The notes beneath the pieces are model-generated. The model was not told the origin of the DNA. It worked only from the letters and a program-made list of their open reading frames with translations, and did not search any database. A stretch of 64,000 nt of DNA from Glaucostegus cemiculus (Eukaryota), in contig CDPCPM010000062.1 of NCBI GenBank assembly GCA_976551045.1, positions 4,588,001-4,652,000 of the forward strand, given 5' to 3'. Both the position numbers and the translations under genes were made by a program. Positions 11,517 through 46,164 of the stretch are shown piece by piece; position 1 is the stretch's first letter; each line of letters begins with the position of its first letter.

Positions 11517-11749
11517 GTGGCCAGCGTACACGTAAAAAAAGATGTCCCTATACCAAGTACCAGATCAGGGAGCTGGAGAGAGAATTTTTTTTCAGTGTCT
11601 ACATCAACAAGGAGAAGCGCCTACAACTTTCCCGGATGCTCAACTTAACCGACCGGCAAGTTAAAATTTGGTTTCAGAACAGGAGGATGAAGGAAAAGAA
11701 GTTAAACAGGGACCGCCTTCAATATTATACTACGAATCCATTGCTCTGA
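11517..11749 (+). CDS. HOXA11: HoxA11 exon 2 (homeodomain); spliced protein 280 aa
   Basis: Acceptor ttacag|GT; [76 protein letters not shown]. The frame joins exon 1 (610+233=843 nt). Confidence 0.97.
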
Positions 11750-27208: not shown

Positions 27209-27293
27209 GAACTGACCTGTGATTTAGGTAGTTTCATGTTGTTGGGGCTAAAGTCTAACTCTACAACACGAAACTGCCTGAATTACTGCAGTT
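27209..27293 (+). ncRNA. MIR196: miR-196 precursor (HoxA-cluster copy, positional ortholog of miR-196b); mature 27225-27246
   Basis: TAGGTAGTTTCATGTTGTTGGG is the mature sequence; the 3' arm ctacaacacgaaactgcctgaa pairs with it; located between Hox10 and Hox9 as expected. Confidence 0.97.
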
Positions 27294-33099: not shown

Positions 33100-33640
33100 A
33101 TGTCGACATCGGGGACTATCAGCAATTATTATGTCGACTCCCTTATAATGCATGAGAACGAGGATCTGCTGTCGTCCAGATATGCGTCGGGTCCTCTGGC
33201 TCAGTCCTCCAGGCAGGCAGCCCTCGCTGAGCACCCCGATTTTTCCCCATGTAACTTCCAGTCTAAAGCGACCGTGTTCAGCACGTCCTGGAACCCGGTG
33301 CATGCTCAGAGTTCTGCCAACATGCCCGCTGTTTATCACCCGTACATGCACCAGGCACCTATAGCCGCCACGCCTGATGGTAGGTACATGCGCTCCTGGC
33401 TAGATCCTATGCCGGGGACCCTGTCCTTTCCCGGGTTACCTTCCAGTAGACACTACGGCATCAAACCTGAGCCTGCGGCTGCCCGCAGGAATGACTGCAC
33501 TACGTTTGAAACACACACGTTAGCCCTCTCAGAATACTCTTGTGGAGCATCTCCTGGTGATAAACGTCTGGCCGAGATTTCCTTTTCTGACAATAATGGA
33601 GAGGTTGAGTCAAACGCAGATAAGCTCCACATGGATCCAA
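33100..33640 (+). CDS. HOXA9: HoxA9 exon 1
   Basis: MSTSGTISNYYVDSLI, FSPCNFQSKATVF, DGRYMRSWL and RHYGIKPEP motifs; donor CCAA|gtaagt at 33641. Confidence 0.96.
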
Positions 33641-34305
33641 GTAAGTATGGAAATCTCACACCTTTTTTAATTTTACTTTTCTATCTACGGATTATAAATT
33701 GGAACCTTTTTATATACCGGATTTATTCATTACGTAGAGAAATTTTTAAAAATCCACCTATTTGTTTCCTATTATCCGTTGTGTGTATGTGTGTATGTGT
33801 GTGTGTGCATGTATGGATTAAAGGTCTTTGATGAAGGTTTACATTGTACATTTTAGGCATTGCCAAGAACAGAAACCGTGTATTTACTGAACTAACATGC
33901 ATTCGTTACAATAGAGGAAGGGGAAGATATTAATTACAGACTCCGTAATTCAAGTGCATCTGGTGCAAGTAAATGTGATGGAGATAAGTTCACTGGAAAG
34001 ATAAAATGCATGCAATACACAATGCAAACAAGCAACATTTTACTTTTCTTAACAAAGTCCCTCAATACTACACTTTTATCTCGTTTTTGAACTCTATTCA
34101 TAAACTCTATTCATTGAACAGCACCATGCGTGTCAGAGTTTCATAATCTTTATAAACATATGAATTTGCAGTAAATAGCTCCATGAGTCCAGAGTTCCCC
34201 ACCCTTATTTTTAATCTGTAAAGGTGTTTTGATTCTGAGAATATTACAATATTTGACCAACATGGGAAGGGAAATATAGTAAATGTGTTTCCTTTACACT
34301 TTCAG

Positions 34306-34547
34306 ATAACCCTTCCGCCAACTGGCTGCATGCAAGGTCTACCAGAAAAAAACGCTGCCCTTACACCAAACATCAGACATTGGAGCTGGAAAAGGAATTC
34401 TTGTTTAATATGTACCTCACAAGAGACCGCAGATACGAAGTGGCCAGGGTTCTCAATCTCACCGAACGGCAAGTTAAAATCTGGTTTCAGAACAGAAGAA
34501 TGAAGATGAAGAAAATTAATAAGGAACGACCGAAAGACGACCGGTGA
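34306..34547 (+). CDS. HOXA9: HoxA9 exon 2 (homeodomain); spliced protein 260 aa
   Basis: Acceptor ttcag|AT; [79 protein letters not shown]. Missed by the ORF track because this frame has no start codon. Confidence 0.97.
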
Positions 34548-37010
34548 CACGGATTAAAATATCTTGGAAGAGAAAAGGACTAATTCACAATTGCAATCGA
34601 AACAGACCCTGCTTAGAAAGACATTATGAACATTTTATCATGCCATTAGCACAAATTATTCCTTTGCCAGTTCTGGACTACACTTGGTGGAAAAGACTAA
34701 TACACTTGTTAGACGGGAACCAAAGAGGGAGACATCTACGGCAAGGTTAAGTCTGTGGCTACGGAATCTACCTTTACATGAAAACTACCTTCTCTTAATC
34801 CACCGCTATTCTATGCGGACAGTAATTCAGTAATACTGTATTAGTTTAATATTTACTTGTTTTACACGCAGCAAATGAGGCTGCCTATATACTTGAATCC
34901 TTGTGTCTGTTGTGATTATCTCTGTGACTGGGCCTCTGTGCTTGGGCGGTGTCTGAGTAAAGATCGTGTAAACAAACAAAAGAAAAATCTCAATTCAACT
35001 CAGGATGTTTAATATAAAACTAACAGGCTGTGTGTTGGATATGAAATGTTATTTTCGTGGTGAACTTGGGACATATATTGTATTATTTTCACTGTGAATT
35101 AACTTGTAAAAACGCCGGGCTTTATGCTGTCTTTGTGAGACTGAGTAACGGCCTTGCCTGGATGCATGACGACTGTGTTGTTCTTCAGCAAATATATGAA
35201 ACTGAATTGCATAGAATGCTAATATAAGTTTTATTTAAAAGAGCAGCGCTGAACATACTGCTACACGATACTATTGTCTATTGTGATGAAAGCACGAATA
35301 AAGTTCTCAAACACTTTGTATTTATCGGTGTTGTGGTGCAAAGAAAAGTATAAGATTTGGTTTAAAACTACCTATATGTATAACTAGTAACTACCTATGT
35401 TTTGTGTGTAAATGTCACTCTTAAAACTGTCTAGATGCATTTATGCGATGAAAAAAACAATATTGTCAATAAATGTAATGTGTACAATACAAGGAAAATA
35501 TCTGGGTGCAATAGAAAGAACACATACCATTAATGTGTTTTAAATGGGGTTTTCTTTGGACCTGCCGAGCTAACACATTTAAACTTGTGTACACGTTTGA
35601 AATGAATACCTCGTGTCATATTGACCAAACTATACTGTTTGTAATGAAATGTCATTTTATTTGTTGTCTAATAAAATATATGTTTCACTACATAAAACAT
35701 GTTTTCACTTCTTAGAATCCAGTGTATGGAGACGCATAGTACTCTGCCCCCGTCTATATTTCATCAAATCCCCCTTAATTTCAGAATTTTCGAAACTCGT
35801 CATACTCGCAGCATTTTCAAAATATCCACCAGTCTCTTTACGAATGCTTGAGATTTGAAACATTAGAATCAACCCCCAAACTTTACAACAGCTGGATAAT
35901 GAAGTAAAAAGAATATATATCAATTTCAAGAAAAGAATCCCGTTTACTACTAACATTTAGTCTCTAATGTCAACACACAGTTTTGTAAAATTTAGCGATA
36001 ACTTCAACAAAAGCTATTAGACTTCCTTCCAAAGTTCTGGCATTCAAAATCTAATCCAATGTTTGGGTCTCCTGAAATAAACATGGGATGTTCAGCTGGT
36101 AACTAAAACTAGAGCAGAGTTCGAGGTTTCTCCGAGAAAAGGAATCATAAACGGTGAGGTAGCAACTTTGTTTTGGAAGCGGATTTGATGACGCAGGGTC
36201 TGAATACATTCGAGCTTAACGCCCAGTTATCACCAATTAACCCGAGAGCCTGCAAAAGTGCACCAACAACTTGTATTTGTCGCTTGGCCATGCTCCCATG
36301 CGGCTGGCTATTTATAAGATTTGTTGTGGGTTACTTATGCAAGAAATGCAGTACTTTTACTCGAAGTGGAAATGGATAACCTTGATCCGGTTGCCTGTGT
36401 AAAATAAATCCAATGTTATTGGGATTTAATCATATTATAATGAAGTGAATAACTATATATATAAACAAAAAAATCAGCTTGGCACCCATTCTTGCCGCCA
36501 TTTCTTTAACAAATCAACACAAAAGAGTCGGAGCCTTTGAAAGCAAAGAAAGTTAAATTAGTCTTAAGCGTTTCACCACTAACAAAAAGTACACGGTTTG
36601 ACCATTTATGCAACTTCTTTTCTGACTGTAAGATCCCTAGTAACTTTTTTAAACCCCGAAGACAGTTTGGATGGATTTAGTGGAATTCAAATGATTTGGA
36701 ATTTGGACGGAAAGGCCCGAGTAGCTGCAAGTCTTGGCAGTGGCTGTCGTTAGTAAAATTCAGAGTGGTGTACCGCAATAAAAGAAAATGACTGCTGTAA
36801 GCGTTTATGGGGTGTAAAACGCTGGAGGTTAAGGGGCGAAGTACATAAACAGAACTCTGACGATCGAAGTATTCTTCGTGTCTAGAGCAAACACGCGAAT
36901 AGGGTTTACAGTAATTAAAATAAATTTTTATTATGATATTAAAACAGTTGGTAAATTGAAATTGCTTTATTTTATTTTTAAGTGTTCAGTCTGGAGGGTT
37001 ATAATGTTGC

Positions 37011-37026
37011 GACGCCCTCTGTTGTT
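37011..37026 (-). promoter_or_regulatory. Candidate CTCF motif (A9|A7 boundary)
   Basis: Reverse complement AACAACAGAGGGCGTC; the position corresponds to the known A7|A9 CTCF boundary interval. Confidence 0.5.
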
Positions 37027-37035
37027 GCATATGGA

Positions 37036-37195
37036 ACTTCAAAGACTAAACAGGGAGACTTGCAATAAAATAAAGGGTCTGGCAAGCCGTCTGGAATTCA
37101 GGTTTTAATGAGTTTACAACTGTCCAGCTACAATCAGTATTTTTCCAGGGAAGGCCATCCATTTGTTTTGTCTGGCTGCTTAGACAAAAGGGTCT
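37036..37195. promoter_or_regulatory. Early-enhancer-like block (TCF + Cdx sites) upstream of the HoxA8 relic / HoxA7
   Basis: acttcaaag (TCF/LEF), caataaaa (Cdx) and CTGGCAAGCCGTCTGG..ggttttaatgagtttac, which resembles the remembered Hoxc8 early-enhancer core. Confidence 0.5.
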
Positions 37196-38735: not shown

Positions 38736-41055
38736 ATGATAATTATTTCACGATATATTTTCCAAAATGATGCTGGTGATTTTTATATATTTAAACGTCT
38801 ATCCGTATGCGTGTGTTTGCACATTCTTGCCACAGCGCAATGCTAATTTAGGAAGACCAGGCTTCCATTCCTCTTAATAAGCTGCACAGAGGAACGTGGA
38901 AGTTTTACAGCCATATAATAGATTCCAAACTACAGCAAATGACTTGTAATGGAATTGATATAAAGGTATTTCAAAATACGCTGACAGACATGATATATAT
39001 TATTATTCAACCGCATTTCAAATATATGCTCTGTGATCAAGTGCTCGTTGCTACTTTGTCTATTGAAGTGTAAAGTTCCCAGCTGCATCTTCAGTATGAT
39101 CTGTTGCTGCGCAACATAATCTTAATGTTGCATAAAGTCTTTTTCATGTGTTTGCAACCAGCTTCCAATAACACTCTAAAAATATATTAGAATAACATGA
39201 AAAAAACCTCATAATTGAACGGATAGGATTTCCAAAAATACAGCGTTCCAGATGTTGTGAAATTTCCCAAAATTTCTGCAAAACACTATGTTGCTCTCCA
39301 ACATTTTGAATTTGTCCTTCTGTCTCGTTGTCCGTCTGCCTCTCTGCCTGCCTGTCTGCTTTTCTATCTATCTGTCTACCTATCTGTCTGACTGTTTGCC
39401 TGTCTGTCTATTTATGCAATTGAGAAATTGTTTGTAATTGAATATTTATCGATTTTCAATCGTGTAAGATCAAATATGCCAAAACTGCTGAATACATAAC
39501 AGCAGCATTGCTTAGAGACCAGCAATACTTGCAAAGCTTTATTAACCACATTTTTATTTCTAAAATAATTGGCAATATTTGGAGTTACAGCCACAATGTT
39601 TTTATATAATCGTATTAACGTGAGTCTTGCTTTCTCTGCTTCCGTGCTTTATTCAGTTCGATCTGTTCAAACGGTGCTGCGAAAAATGCATTCATGGATT
39701 CCTGGTAATAAAAAGAAAATAAGAATTTGGTGTTGTTGCTAAATAAACAGTATCAGTGTTTTATAAGCAATGTTACAATCTGATTAGATAACCGAATGCA
39801 AGCATACTTCAGATGTTGGACAGACTATTATAATTTGTACTATACTTATCAACATTTACAACAAAGTCCGTGCGGTCGCAATGATCAAAGTACAACCGTA
39901 CGAAGAAACTGGCAATCCTGGGAAATGGAGAAATAAAGTGTTAAATAGTTAAAAAAATACTTTTGCCAATTTCCTGCCTCACATTATTTGGAAATGAATT
40001 GATGGCACTTTGAGGAACGTCGGTGTTCTAGGCGTATGTTTGACTTCAGCTAACAGCCTGATTTTTTTGTTATTGTTGAAGGAGGGTGGCTTGGATGAAA
40101 TGCTGATTTTATTCTGTTCAATTACATTACTTTTCATTCAATTGCCCCCTTCCATTGACTCGTATCTTCCAAGTTTTCGTCGGAGATCAATTATTTCCAA
40201 TCTTAGAACATTCGGTAGCGGCAACCTATTTTCAGCGAGGAATGTTTAGACTTAGAAAATATGATTTTATTTACACATTATGTGATGTCTCTCCTCTGCT
40301 CGACAATGCTATGCATTTTTCTGATTAATTTGAATTACATTTCTTTTTCTTTTATTTTTATACATTCTGCTGACATCCCGCCGCTCTGCTAAAATCTTTG
40401 ACAGCTCGACTTCGGATTTATTTTAAGTTATTTGTAACGTAGGAAAAGTTTAGAACACAAAGCCATCTCTCAAAGCGGTTCCTGCAATATTTACATTAGC
40501 ACGCCGTTTCGTTTTAGGTATGTACAGGAAACGTGGAGATTACCGACAGTTTTATAGTCTGGTGGTATATCAACCAAAGAATATTCTTTAACGACCGAGG
40601 GACGAATGCAGTCCAATAACCTCCCGATAAAACATCCTCGCTGGTCGAAAGCCTTTCTGCATAGAACTCGCACTGCAACTACCGGAGCGACCCAGAGTTC
40701 AAAAAGAAAATAACATTTAATAATATGAGAGCAAATGCTTCCTAAAGGATCTCAGATGCAAATGCAGAAACATATTTTATTGTAACTATCCTTTACTTTC
40801 AACGTACCAGGTGCATCGTTGCAAGACTGTGTATCTGCTGTATATACAGTGGCCTGGGGTTTCTTGTCTACGTATAACATCGAAAAAATATAACTATTAA
40901 TCTTGTGCATTCGGCTAGTGAGCAACGAAAGCCAAAGTAGAATGACTGTCGCAATTGCAAGGGAACTCGTTTCGGAGACACCTTCCATGATCTAATGAGA
41001 GAATTAGGAGACAGAGAGAGAGAAAAAAAAGTTGTAAAACAGAAGGAGGAAATGA
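38736..41055 (+). pseudogene. Decayed HoxA8 relic (exon-1 remnant ~38736-39150; homeobox remnant ~41004-41055)
   Basis: ATG..TAT TTC..TTT TCC AAA..GCT GGT GAT (M..YF..FSK..AGD), Y-A-C-F-A-H (38806) and N-L-G-R-P (38845) match Hox8 MSSYFVN.LFSKYK.GE..YDC.FAQDLGGRP (recalled). TTA GGA..ACA GAG AGA GAG AAA AAA AAG TTG TAA AAC AGA AGG AGG AAA TGA matches [19 protein letters not shown] with stops. Confidence 0.75.
39318..39411. repeat. Degenerate (CTGT/CTGC/CTAT)n tetranucleotide repeat
   Basis: ctgtct/ctgcct/ctatct units in tandem. Confidence 0.8.
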
Positions 41056-41924
41056 TGCCGGGTTAAATCCCCTGCGGGGAACTCGTCAGAATACCTAGCA
41101 ACTCCAAGAGGTTTTGCACAGAATAGCTGTGGTATTGAAACAGCGGAGGAAATGCGGCAGTTCACAAAATGAAATTATGCATTTCAGTAAATCAATACAC
41201 AAACATAGACGGAATCTATAAAAAGATGGAGAGTTCATAGCAGGAGCTGATTTCACTGTGACGCCCCGCCCAATCTCCTTGCACCATTACTGCGGTTTAT
41301 ACCTTTTTTGCATTTCCAGTCCCCACTAAAACCACGCAGATTATCCTGTAATCTAGAGATTAGGTGAATCCTGATCATTAATTCCATAGGGTTACAGTAC
41401 CACAGTGTCCCAACCCCTCCCCCAATCCCATCTCCCTCCAATTTCGTACAGGGTTTCATAATGCTGAATAGCAGCTACCTCTTGCACAGAGAGCGTGTGG
41501 AACAATGGGAGAGGGCTTGTCTTTTAATTGAAACCATGTAATTTTTTTCAAGCAAAGTGCAGAACATATTTCTGAATGTTGATCTAATGTGACCATCAAT
41601 TTCTTTCTATGCGTAAATAATGCTTATTTCCAGAAGTTAAACCAACGTGTCTCCATTTTTTATTTCTGTATCAAAGAAAACCTTTCATTACATTTCCAAA
41701 TTGATCGTGCATCTCATTTTCACAAGCGTTGGAGACATACCTGCGCTCTGGAAATCCTCACATGCGTATGGGGGATTGGCTTGTCAGGAACTTGTTAGAA
41801 GATACTTACTTTTTGAAAGTTCCACTACCTACCTATATTAATAATGCAATCTTTTATATGATTCTTGCATAATTTATTTTGAAAATAGTCAAATAACATG
41901 ATATTTGCCACCTGTGATGTGAAA

Positions 41925-42092
41925 TGCTATTGGGTGACGGGATCACATGGTCGGGTCACGTGAATAGAAATAAGTCGGGCCGGAGGAAAATGGGTGTTTG
42001 GTGTAAATCGGGGGTGTAATGCTGCCATATATCACGCTATCTCGTAAAACCGACACTGAAGAGTCTCGGCCAACAAATCACCAGACAAAATT
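41925..42092 (+). promoter_or_regulatory. HoxA7 promoter / 5'UTR
   Basis: CACATG and CACGTG E-boxes, repeated GGTGTAA, ctcgtaaaa and the ACAAATCA leader motif typical of central Hox 5'UTRs. Confidence 0.65.
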
Positions 42093-42486
42093 ATGAGTTC
42101 GTCGTATTATGTGAATGCTCTTTTTCCCAAATATACGGCGGGGACATCCGTTTTCCAGAACACGAGTGGCTTTACAGAAGCAACTTCTTGCGCTTTTGCA
42201 GCGAACTCACAAAGATCGAGCTATGGAGCGAGCGCGGGCGCTTTCCCAACTCCGATGGCCGGGCTGTACAATGTTAACAGTGCAATCTATCACGGCCCTT
42301 CCATGTACAACACAGGTTATAACCTAAATTCAGATTCCTACAACCTGCGCTGCTCTGCCTTAGACCAGAACATTCCAGTACTTTGCAGCGATCTGAGCAA
42401 ACAGGGTTGCGAAAAATTGGATCAGACAAACGTGCATCCTCAAGCAGAGAGCAATTTCCGGATTTACCCCTGGATGAGGAATGCAG
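42093..42486 (+). CDS. HOXA7: HoxA7 exon 1
   Basis: MSSSYYVNALFPKYTAG, LCSDLSK and NFRIYPWMR hexapeptide; donor GCAG|gtatgg at 42487. Confidence 0.96.
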
Positions 42487-42569
42487 GTATGGGACATCCG
42501 AGTAACACGGCTATAGGAGACGTGCAAACGGCCAGTTAAGATGAGAGCCAGTGCCTCCTGAAAGTAGTT

Positions 42570-42682
42570 TAGAGTTTTAATGATAGCTACGGAACAGTTC
42601 CTCAAACGCATGTGGCATTGTATGCAGATAGCAATCATAAAACTTTTATTGCACAATTAATCAGTACAATCCTCGTAAAAGC
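42570..42682. promoter_or_regulatory. HoxA7 intronic homeodomain-binding cluster (HB1-like)
   Basis: ttttaatga, catAAAActTTTATtgc, caattaatc and ctcgtaaaa clustered at the 5' end of the intron. Confidence 0.5.
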
Positions 42683-43279
42683 ACTCGACATCCGCTCATT
42701 TAAAGTTAACAGCAAGCCACATATTGCTTATTTACTCACTTTTATCAACATAAATAAGTTTTTTTAAAAACTGATACGCGGGAAACAATATAGTCTTGAG
42801 CGAATGGGATGATATGTTCCATGTCTAATGTAAGTTTGCAGATAAAACACTGTCGAGAGACTGAAGAAATTATATTTTACCTCAAGAAAGATCCCTCGAC
42901 CCCTGTAAAGCTTCAACTCTTATAGATGTGGGTTCGTATTTAAATCGCACCAATTTAGTCCTATCATGCAAGCGTTCTGCCCGGATTTGTGTGGTTCTTT
43001 GCTGGTGTTGAACAAGTCAACACACTTGAAGAATCTTAAGTGGGAGTTTAAGACTTGTTACCTGTAATTTCTAGCTCTGAGCCGTTAGCATTGACGTCCC
43101 TTATCTTGTGCCCTAATGTTATTTTACTCAAGATAATGGACACCGATACTTAATTACAATACTTACAGACCACAGAGGCCTCCACTGAATCCTTGCTCTT
43201 TAAATACCCAGCTAGAAGAGAGAAACGCTTCGATCAAGATTGTTTATTTGCCTCCTAAAACAGTCCATCGCTGTTTTAA

Positions 43280-43675
<396 letters not shown>

Positions 43676-46164
43676 AACGTCCAGCTGCTGCCTGAACTGT
43701 GCGAATGTACAAAGCTGTTTCCCAACAGCTAACAATGACATTTAACTACCTAGCCACAACCGTGGACTATCAGAAAGATGCTGTGCATTGCCATTCATGA
43801 TACTACCTATACGTTTCAATAATCTTCTGAAATAAATAATAAAATTACTTTCTCTGATTTGGTTTTAATAAAACAAAATCCAAAATCTTGATCGGCGTTA
43901 GTAAAATGGGTTCAGAATAAGTTCTTTTGGTACTAAAGTGAAAGTCAATGGATTTAAACCCTTTGCCCGGTCGCCACAGATTTTCCCGAGCTAATCTGAG
44001 AATCTCTCATTGCAATAAAACACAGAAAGGAGCACAATTCTGAACCTCTGCACTCTACGTATATAAGGGAATGGGACTCCGATTCTGGGTCTCAGATAGT
44101 GGAGCGATAGGAATAATATGAGCCGAAAAAAAACAAACTGTAGCCATTGTTGTATTTAATTCACTTCATAAGATATATCTCATGCACTGAGCTATTTATC
44201 AAACTTATTTTATCTTCATTAATTCGCATTCTAAACATATTTTAAAACATTTCTGCACACCATTCACAAAATGAGAACGTTGTGATTTTAGGATCTCATT
44301 TCCAGTCCAATCAGAAACCAAGTATACGAGCCACCCTGTCATGTATTACAAGAACTGATCAGAAAACTAACTCACCAGTAAAATAGTTTATTTCTGATCA
44401 ATTCCTGATTTTTCTCTACATTGTTTATTGTGTTCCGAGTATGTCTTTTATTTCATTTATGTAACGTCCCCACTAAGGGTATAAAACAATGTTTTGTTTT
44501 CACTTGGCAATTAAATGTAACTACCTAAACCACAATAGTGGACATCTTGCACGTTTAATGGAAACTACCTAAATGTTTTAATTTAATATTCGTTTCTAGA
44601 CAGAGAATGTTGTTCTGAATTCTTGACTTTTCTCCCTTCTTATAACAGTACCATAATATGAGAGTAAAATAGTGAAATATATTCCGATATGTGTGTATTT
44701 TAATGAGGTGCGTATGTAGTCACTTTATAACAAGAGAATAGTGAATACTACCTAGATGCCCGTTTACGTTTAACGCAAATGGAATCCTTTCGCAATATGC
44801 TTCAATACTATGCTGTAAAAAGCAAAATAGTTGCATTAGGAGGCAGAAATTGCATTATTACTTTTTGATGGGTGTCATTAAAATATGTACTTGCTAAAGA
44901 TTTCAATAAACCTTGTATTATTGAATGATGTAATCGTGTTTCTTTAAGTGTTGTATCAGTTGTCTTAGACATGTGTACTGTGTAAATTATAAAAAAATCT
45001 AATAACCAAATGTAATGATAGAAAACCCGAACTGCATCGTCAGCTGAATATATTGTGGTTCCATATTCGGTGTGGTATCTGTCAATCGAAAGTTTGCCCT
45101 GTAATCTGTGTATGTGTTGTTCAATAATAACCGATGTTAAAGGTTTAAGGTGCAATCTATTGAAAATATATATATTCGTTCTCGACATGTATACTTTGAA
45201 TGGAAACTGTGTAAGAAAGCAAAACTCAAAAACATTAAACGGTGCTTGAATAAACATGGTCTCGATTTCTTGTCTGAGCCATACACCACCAAATGAGTAG
45301 GTATATGGTTCGTTATAAAGGTATGGGTTGCATAATTACTAACAATAATTAAATATAAGGTGTTTGAAAAATTATACACACTTCTTCATACACCGTACAT
45401 CATCTTCCAATTATCTGATTTTCATTATATAAAATGAAACATACCCTTAAAACACCTTATTGCCAATCTTTATATTAATTAAAGCCTACGTTAGAAAACT
45501 CGATTGTTAAAACAGCGTAATTGTGATGAAAACTGGCCAGATGTTTTATTTTGAGCACGACAGTATCAGACGGGATGCATTCGAATTGGGGAATCTGGGC
45601 AAAAAGTTACAACTGAGTAATTAGCATTTGATTCCAAATCGTGCCCATTTATCAATCTGTGAGCACTGGAAGGAAACATTTTAAAAAAATGAAACAATGT
45701 TGTATTCGGACTCAGTATAAAACACAAATAGGAAGTGGGGAGAAGAGCCGCGTGCTCTGTCATCGGCGACCTTTGAACGAATTTTCGGGCAAGTGCATCT
45801 TTATATGTTATGGATGCAGAGCGGCCGCGCATCCTGAATCCGAATCACAGAGTATGAACGAGCCAGGGTTCATTTTCTAACTGCAGCATACTAAAGTAAA
45901 ACGGAAAACTGGAAAGAAAAATATGGATAGAAAGCTGCGGTTAAACGTAACACCGACTTGATGCGCTTTAATAACAGCCTGGGTCCAGAAACAGCACTGA
46001 CCTGCATAAAAAAAATCCCACAAATTACAGATGGATATTATTATCGTGATAACTTGTCTTCGGAAACTGAAAAATTATGTTTAAACTGCGGAAAAAATCT
46101 TTTATAATTTCGCAATTTTAACTTGTCTCTTTGTTAAAAATGGCGTCTAGGACCTGCCTCCTAA

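Follow-up and report, generated by a model that had tools for sequence, protein, structure and literature searches.

A borderline helix-3-like patch in the HoxA8 slot of the Glaucostegus cemiculus HoxA cluster

Introduction

Callorhinchus milii is described as carrying HoxA14 and HoxB14 pseudogenes in the section of its report considered here (PMC3707753). According to an excerpted account, mouse and human lack Hoxa8 in their cluster (PMC3394115), and the skate and horn-shark HoxA comparison has no mention of Hoxa8, a pseudogene or a remnant (PMC2746220). The excerpts of PMC2080641 and of bioRxiv 10.1101/2024.07.20.604409 likewise hold nothing on remnants of A8 or B11. A literature search gave no report of a HoxA8 or HoxB11 pseudogene, with most subscription papers and all supplements outside its scope; supplements of shark genome papers may bear on both. 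To our knowledge, HoxA8 is absent from all jawed vertebrates. A HoxA8 pseudogene may have been reported from horn shark or striped bass, which would concern the same slot between A9 and A7.

Hox pseudogenes in slowly evolving clusters are already known, and the gain from a patch that has no coding potential is historical. HoxA8 has so far been just a gap. A real remnant would show that it once stood as a gene of its own following the genome duplications and then decayed where it lay, and would be of use in ordering the early Hox losses. Here we analyse a patch upstream of HoxA7 for which such an origin was predicted from the letters of the DNA.

The HoxA cluster of the window

The window, that is, the whole stretch of 64,000 bases analysed, is the HoxA cluster of a cartilaginous fish with A11, A10, A9, A7, A6 and A5 and without A8. 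Its six homeoboxes are all intact and lie on the + strand at 11528 (A11), 25136 (A10), 34341 (A9), 43451 (A7), 52274 (A6) and 55608 (A5); the gene names, except HoxA7, are our assignment from homeodomain sequence and gene order. HoxB8, HoxC8 and HoxD8 are intact in the genome and HoxA8 is absent from it. The genome also keeps D2, D5, D14 and B10, which is the pattern of cartilaginous fish according to the portion of PMC5054437 considered. An expanded HoxC cluster is kept as well, with intact HoxC6, C8, C9, C10 and a Hox11 on short repeat-rich contigs (G000:C993 and C1164). Two non-coding blocks upstream of the patch are conserved with the HoxB9-B8 interval (Table 1) and are likely to be ancient regulatory elements. 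A metagenome search with HoxA7 exon 1 as the query gave zero matches, and no named shark HoxA7 was among the results of the protein search.

The candidate has Hox9 and Hox7 as its neighbours and shares the strand of the cluster, which has no intact Hox8. It was placed about 1 kb upstream of HoxA7, and indeed the codon of N51 (41038) precedes the HoxA7 start by 1,055 bases. The distance from Hox8 N51 to the Hox7 start in the same genome is 1,690 bases in the B cluster and, measured to the aligned start position, 1,323 in D, so that the candidate is shorter and of the same scale. Slot and strand therefore fit HoxA8, with a slightly short spacing.

Table 1. Features discussed in the text; positions given without a contig are those of the window.
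Feature	Position	Strand	Remarks
mir-196	27216-27289		within the HoxA window
HoxA9 gene	33100..34547	+	5' neighbour of the candidate; homeobox 34341-34520
Non-coding block, likely regulatory	36741-36833		79% over 95 bases with HoxB9-B8 interval, E 2.5e-14
Non-coding block, likely regulatory	37009-37118		63% over 119 bases with HoxB9-B8 interval, E 0.027
Expected place of Hox8 exon 1	40098..40740	+	faint, inconsistent likeness only
Predicted acceptor, YS and EK..FNP anchors	40790..40904	+	letters there; homology unsupported
Helix-3-like patch, homeodomain positions 38-56	41004..41055	+	gap of 2 bases behind LG, lacks one codon, two stops; with the tail to 41073, sole part with signal
Tail CRVKSP, in frame	41056..41073	+	loose likeness to Hox8 tail NKDKFP after a 12-base gap (Viterbi)
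Weak collinear alignment to HoxB8 3'UTR	41088..41618	+	293/480 identical; 2/200 shuffles as good
miR-196 8-mer seed match ACTACCTA	41824..41831	+	probably not a Hox8 3'UTR relic
HoxA7 promoter block	41926..42100	+	synteny anchor; common to HoxB7 and the likely promoter relic downstream of HoxD8
HoxA7 gene	42093..43675	+	exon 1 42093-42486; exon 2 from 43443; homeobox 43451-43630
HoxA14 relic	G000:C62 ~4,577,870-4,578,040	+	locus L042/L043; 10 kb before the window, 7.5 kb upstream of A13
Fossil posterior-Hox homeobox (candidate HoxB11)	G000:C197 ~420,690-420,900	+	L045/L047 region, outside the window; acceptor-like TTACAG
HoxA7/B7-like promoter block (likely HoxD7 relic)	G000:C33 26,040,176-26,040,344	+	L034/L035; 1 kb after HoxD8; 66-69% identical, 0/500 shuffles
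Hox-profile peak, B13-B10	G000:C197 ~428,500-428,740	+	12-16 bits
Hox-profile peak, B13-B10	G000:C197 ~439,100-439,320	+	12-16 bits

The helix-3-like patch

The letters on which the original prediction was built are correct: TTAGGA stands at 41004, one G follows, and the frame from 41011 reads TEREKKKL-stop-NRRRK-stop, ending at 41055. The reference for this reading is the corresponding 19-residue segment of B8 and D8. The patch carries inactivating lesions, namely the stops at 41035 and 41053 and the frameshift after LG, and W48 is missing. It cannot encode a homeodomain and is non-coding, and no function is indicated for it. The tail, which the prediction had overlooked, raises the whole-exon score from -6.4 to 1.5 bits, and by itself is not significant (76-94 of 150 shuffles are as good). 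The Viterbi alignment of the whole exon is identical at 82 of 160 positions and has long gaps.

Tandem Repeats Finder detects no array at the patch, Rfam has no family there, and 40600-41300 is single copy. Two other organisms have contigs that cover the region and are about 95% identical (132 differing letters in 3,000 bases and 119 in 2,080). Seven letters at 41017, inside the GA run, are absent in one of these relatives and kept in the other.

As to paralog identity, LG distinguishes group 8 as was claimed, since B8, C8 and D8 of this genome have LG and its Hox4-7 have LC. The profiles do not bear out the assignment to group 8: in local mode PG5 scores 8.7 bits, PG8 7.1 and PG7 6.1. Among 30 single genes D8 is the best match to the patch, B8 the 6th and C8 the 22nd. 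As the profiles do not single out group 8, a Hox8 assignment would rest on position.

Likeness and chance

The patch stands above chance at a borderline level only. Pairwise local alignment of 40701-41200 to 30 homeoboxes of the same genome, with 300 shuffles, reaches significance for none of them (shuffles as good: 140 for B8, 16 for D8, 67 for C8). The check named in the prediction, a nucleotide profile HMM (nhmmer --max, four own-genome profiles, A9-A7 interval), finds nothing significant; 41031-41054 appears with E of 37-52, bias of 10-14 and negative bits.

Scored over the whole exon by a pair-HMM with a decayed B8/C8/D8 profile, no + strand site between A9 and A7 exceeds the patch at model distances 0.3 and 0.5, two of the three used. 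The prediction was to fall if composition-preserving shuffles scored equally. The outcome is mixed. In glocal mode the score is equalled by 1 and 24 of 300 dinucleotide shuffles of the 500 bases, in 5-18 of 300 trials with a codon-shuffled profile, and by 17-67 of 300 block shuffles which retain the purine patch (6-22%). With control-tuned settings 15, 36 and 23 of 200 shuffles are as good. In local mode 11-135 of 300 shuffles are as good. The reversed sequence scores slightly below the forward one (-1.9 against 1.5; 4.2 against 7.8), which we do not count as evidence. Simple repeats were masked in the later profile scans. Two HoxB matches to the D14 profile, of 12-29 bits, were dropped, being GATA microsatellites.

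The likeness is strongest where the segment was chosen by hand. Positions 38-56, picked post hoc, rank 1-2 in 414,592 bases of Hox DNA and are equalled by 0-2 of 100 shuffles, block shuffles included. Similarly, the patch is the best match in 418,844 bases to the degenerate pattern TER+FQNRRMKW, itself drawn up post hoc, with 0 of 400 in three types of shuffle. Ranks of 24-29 are obtained with positions 31-60; positions 1-30 are without signal, scoring under 67-90 of 100 shuffles. Selection was corrected for by allowing any piece of 12, 19 or 26 codons and comparing with real 1.5-kb Hox tiles; the candidate score is then reached by 14 of 249 tiles, the candidate's own included, which places it in the top 6%. 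With the settings (distance, gaps) tuned on two controls the candidate ranks 16 (glocal) and 29 (local) in the 414,592 bases. By our arithmetic from the ranks, p is about 0.05-0.10 within the slot where HoxA8 is expected, and about 0.25-0.5 when the A9-A7 interval is taken as a whole.

Simulated decay makes the expected appearance of a relic clearer. A whole exon at 0.4 substitutions per site is obvious, and at 0.8 or above it is indistinguishable from noise, while uniform decay leaves a strong helix-3 patch next to a 5' half without signal in only 0-3 of 50 runs per distance. Since the patch-only pattern is rare in simulation, a relic would need in addition a deletion or loss of the 5' part.

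The flanks of the patch

The original prediction extended the homeobox upstream to 40790 by an acceptor, YS and EK..FNP. These letters are present (taccag ends at 40810, TACAGT is at 40845, GAAAAA at 40882, AAT at 40899), and they are not collinear with Hox8: the spacing from N23 to L38 is 105 bases against 45 in B8 and D8, 60 too far, and that from YS to EK is 37 against 27, off by 10. Collinear likeness over the whole homeobox from the acceptor onward thus fails, with positions 1-30 blank, the anchors misplaced and an identity of 82/160. The span 40790-41055 is unsupported as one homeobox, and any signal is confined to 41004-41073.

The results for exon 1 are mixed. Its 3' thirds align at 40603-40740 for B8 (3 of 300 shuffles as good) and C8 (8 of 300), D8 fails (162 of 300), and the alignment of the 5' thirds is not significant. 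The pair-HMM score of exon 1 is equalled by 1 of 120 codon-shuffled profiles and by 28-49 of 120 block shuffles. After correction for composition, 52 of 714 tiles are as good for B8 and 556 of 713 for D8. A joint model of exons 1 and 2 ranks 15-24, and exon 2 alone at its best distance ranks 8, so there is no gain from exon 1.

Downstream, the likeness to the HoxB8 3'UTR is reached by 8 of 1427 tiles one way and 150 of 1427 the other, and after correction for composition by 74 and 123 of 713 and by 89 of 793 (10-17%). Real paralog UTR pairs are barely detectable themselves, so this test has little power. A chain of helix 3 and UTR, anchored at a chosen start that is uncorrected for, is matched by 10 of 793 and 12 of 791 tiles and is not counted as evidence.

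The miR-196 seed at 41824 exists as an 8-mer, while its proposed descent from a Hox8 3'UTR is unsupported: 769 bases separate it from the patch, whereas the sites of B8 and D8 follow their stops by 366 and 403. An extended miR-196 site of the type following the B8 and D8 stops is missing at the expected 370-400 bases downstream of the patch, the only near-match being GCTACCT at 419, and neither AATAAA nor ATTAAA occurs in 41056-42093. The block around the 8-mer shows a weak alignment to the sequence that immediately precedes HoxB7 (24 of 300 shuffles do as well), and the 8-mer arises in 12 of 2000 local shuffles. The window has 11 miR-196 seed matches against 2.3 expected by chance, eight of them just downstream of A9 and A7 and three elsewhere. 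The eight comprise three at 34784-35396 downstream of HoxA9 and five at 43745-44753 downstream of HoxA7; miR-196 sites in the HoxA7 3'UTR are described for skate and horn shark in the part of PMC2746220 considered.

Other relics in the genome

The HoxA14 relic follows the opening part of the HoxD14 homeobox collinearly over about 160 bases. It is equalled by 0 of 500 pairwise shuffles and by 0-1 of 300 in four nulls, and ranks 1 in 414,592 bases with the tuned settings. A + strand match about 350 bases downstream of it may be its helix-3 exon. HoxA14 is intact in coelacanth and lungfish, as stated in the excerpt of PMC3038165, which makes its loss younger than that of HoxA8.

The HoxB fossil is flanked by intact HoxB13 (369,707) and HoxB10 (444,950). 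It best matches D11 and A10, not Hox12 or 13 (0 of 200 shuffles each), scores 13-18 bits with 0 of 100 in three nulls, and ranks 1 or 4 in 414,592 bases. We consider it a candidate HoxB11 pseudogene. It is clearer and more interesting than the HoxA8 patch and deserves more follow-up. Pairwise tests of the two further peaks between B13 and B10 are weak, with 3-13 of 200 at best for the one at 439,100-439,320 and none for the other.

The block downstream of HoxD8 stops at the position of the start codon, where both an ATG and any detectable coding sequence of Hox7 are lacking, and is likely to be a relic of the HoxD7 promoter. Between A13 and A11 no trace of a Hox12 gene is seen, and between D8 and D5 none of a Hox6/7 homeobox (D7, D6).

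The HoxA14 relic and the HoxB fossil, which are the two controls, are each preserved mostly in the 5' half, so that incomplete survival of a homeobox is nothing unusual. Their existence makes an A8 relic more probable beforehand, but the patch is much weaker than either of them.

Discussion

We suggest that the odds are balanced on whether 41004-41073 is the last recognisable piece of HoxA8 exon 2, an eroded remnant of helix 3. The near-even odds follow from two quantities: such a match has roughly a 1-in-10 to 1-in-20 chance of occurring in the slot, while about 1 in 4-5 of the anciently lost Hox genes examined left a clear homeobox trace. In favour of the relic are the right slot and strand, the top whole-exon peak, the rank of positions 38-56, the place in the top 6% of tiles, the in-frame KFP-like tail, the survival of other partial Hox fossils in the genome, the single-copy state and the presence in two other organisms. 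Against it are the nhmmer E values of 37-52, the non-significant pairwise alignments, the ranks of 16 and 29 where the controls rank 1-4, and the blank positions 1-30. The purine richness, the long gaps of the whole-exon alignment, the lack of a preference for paralog 8, the missing W48, the rarity of the patch-only pattern in simulation, the failure of the exon 1 and UTR tests after correction for composition and the seven letters absent from one relative weigh on the same side.

A slightly less than even chance is given to an ordinary intergenic GA/A-rich patch that mimics helix 3 and was picked by a reader seeking Hox8 there. The codons of QNRRMKWKK are themselves purine-rich, so such likeness can come by chance, and the purine fraction of the patch, 0.85, is the maximum of the A9-A7 interval: none of 730 sampled 60-base windows equals it. 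With 13 other tiles of 249 scoring as high, about one match in four would be expected somewhere in the interval, and a GATA microsatellite reaches 25-29 bits with the same scorer. Beyond the chosen 52-70 bases all tests are negative or inconsistent, and the true fossils of this genome score far better. On the other hand, the patch has the orientation of the cluster and lies within the 1-2 kb where Hox8 would be expected, block shuffles that preserve purine content fail to reproduce the chosen segment (0-2/100; 0/400), and the state at 41017, common to one of the two relatives, is not a private expansion. We regard it as very improbable that the patch stems from another homeobox than that of HoxA8, such as one left by a local Hox5-7 duplicate, or that it is maintained as a regulatory or non-coding-RNA element of the HoxA7 upstream region and resembles helix 3 incidentally. 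The PG5 and PG7 profiles match the patch as well as PG8 does, but there is no second copy, no flanking likeness to A5-A7 and no Rfam family.

If the patch is indeed a HoxA8 remnant, we propose the following course of events. HoxA8, redundant with B8, C8 and D8 after the genome duplications, would have been inactivated and lost early in jawed vertebrates. Its DNA would then have decayed in place, slowly and unevenly; exon 1 and the 5' two-thirds of the homeobox would have been lost or eroded past detection, while the purine-rich codons of helix 3 remained legible. The mutation rate of sharks is low, 7 x 10^-10 per base per generation in the portion of PMC10587355 considered, which makes the survival of such an old relic plausible.

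More broadly, it may just as well be true as not that the shark Hox clusters still preserve legible traces of genes that vanished before jawed vertebrates arose or soon afterwards, with helix 3 of HoxA8, a Hox11-like homeobox between B13 and B10 and a HoxD7 promoter without its gene. If true, this would be direct sequence evidence of once fuller duplicated clusters, pruned gene by gene via decay in place.

The HoxA8 relic, if real, is a further case of a known kind of Hox pseudogene. Like the Hox14 pseudogenes of Callorhinchus milii, as the excerpt presents them, it would be a decayed homeobox remaining in its cluster slot. Unlike the Hox14 relic of the present genome, which is collinear over some 160 bases and beats every null, the HoxA8 patch has 52-70 bases and is borderline. 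It also resembles the caecilian psi-HoxD12 (PMC4470032) and the bichir HoxA7 pseudogene (PMC1845163), which are, in the parts of these papers considered, relics in Hox clusters of slow evolution, recognised when aligned with intact orthologs. However, those two have intact orthologs in relatives, whereas HoxA8 is comparable with its paralogs only.
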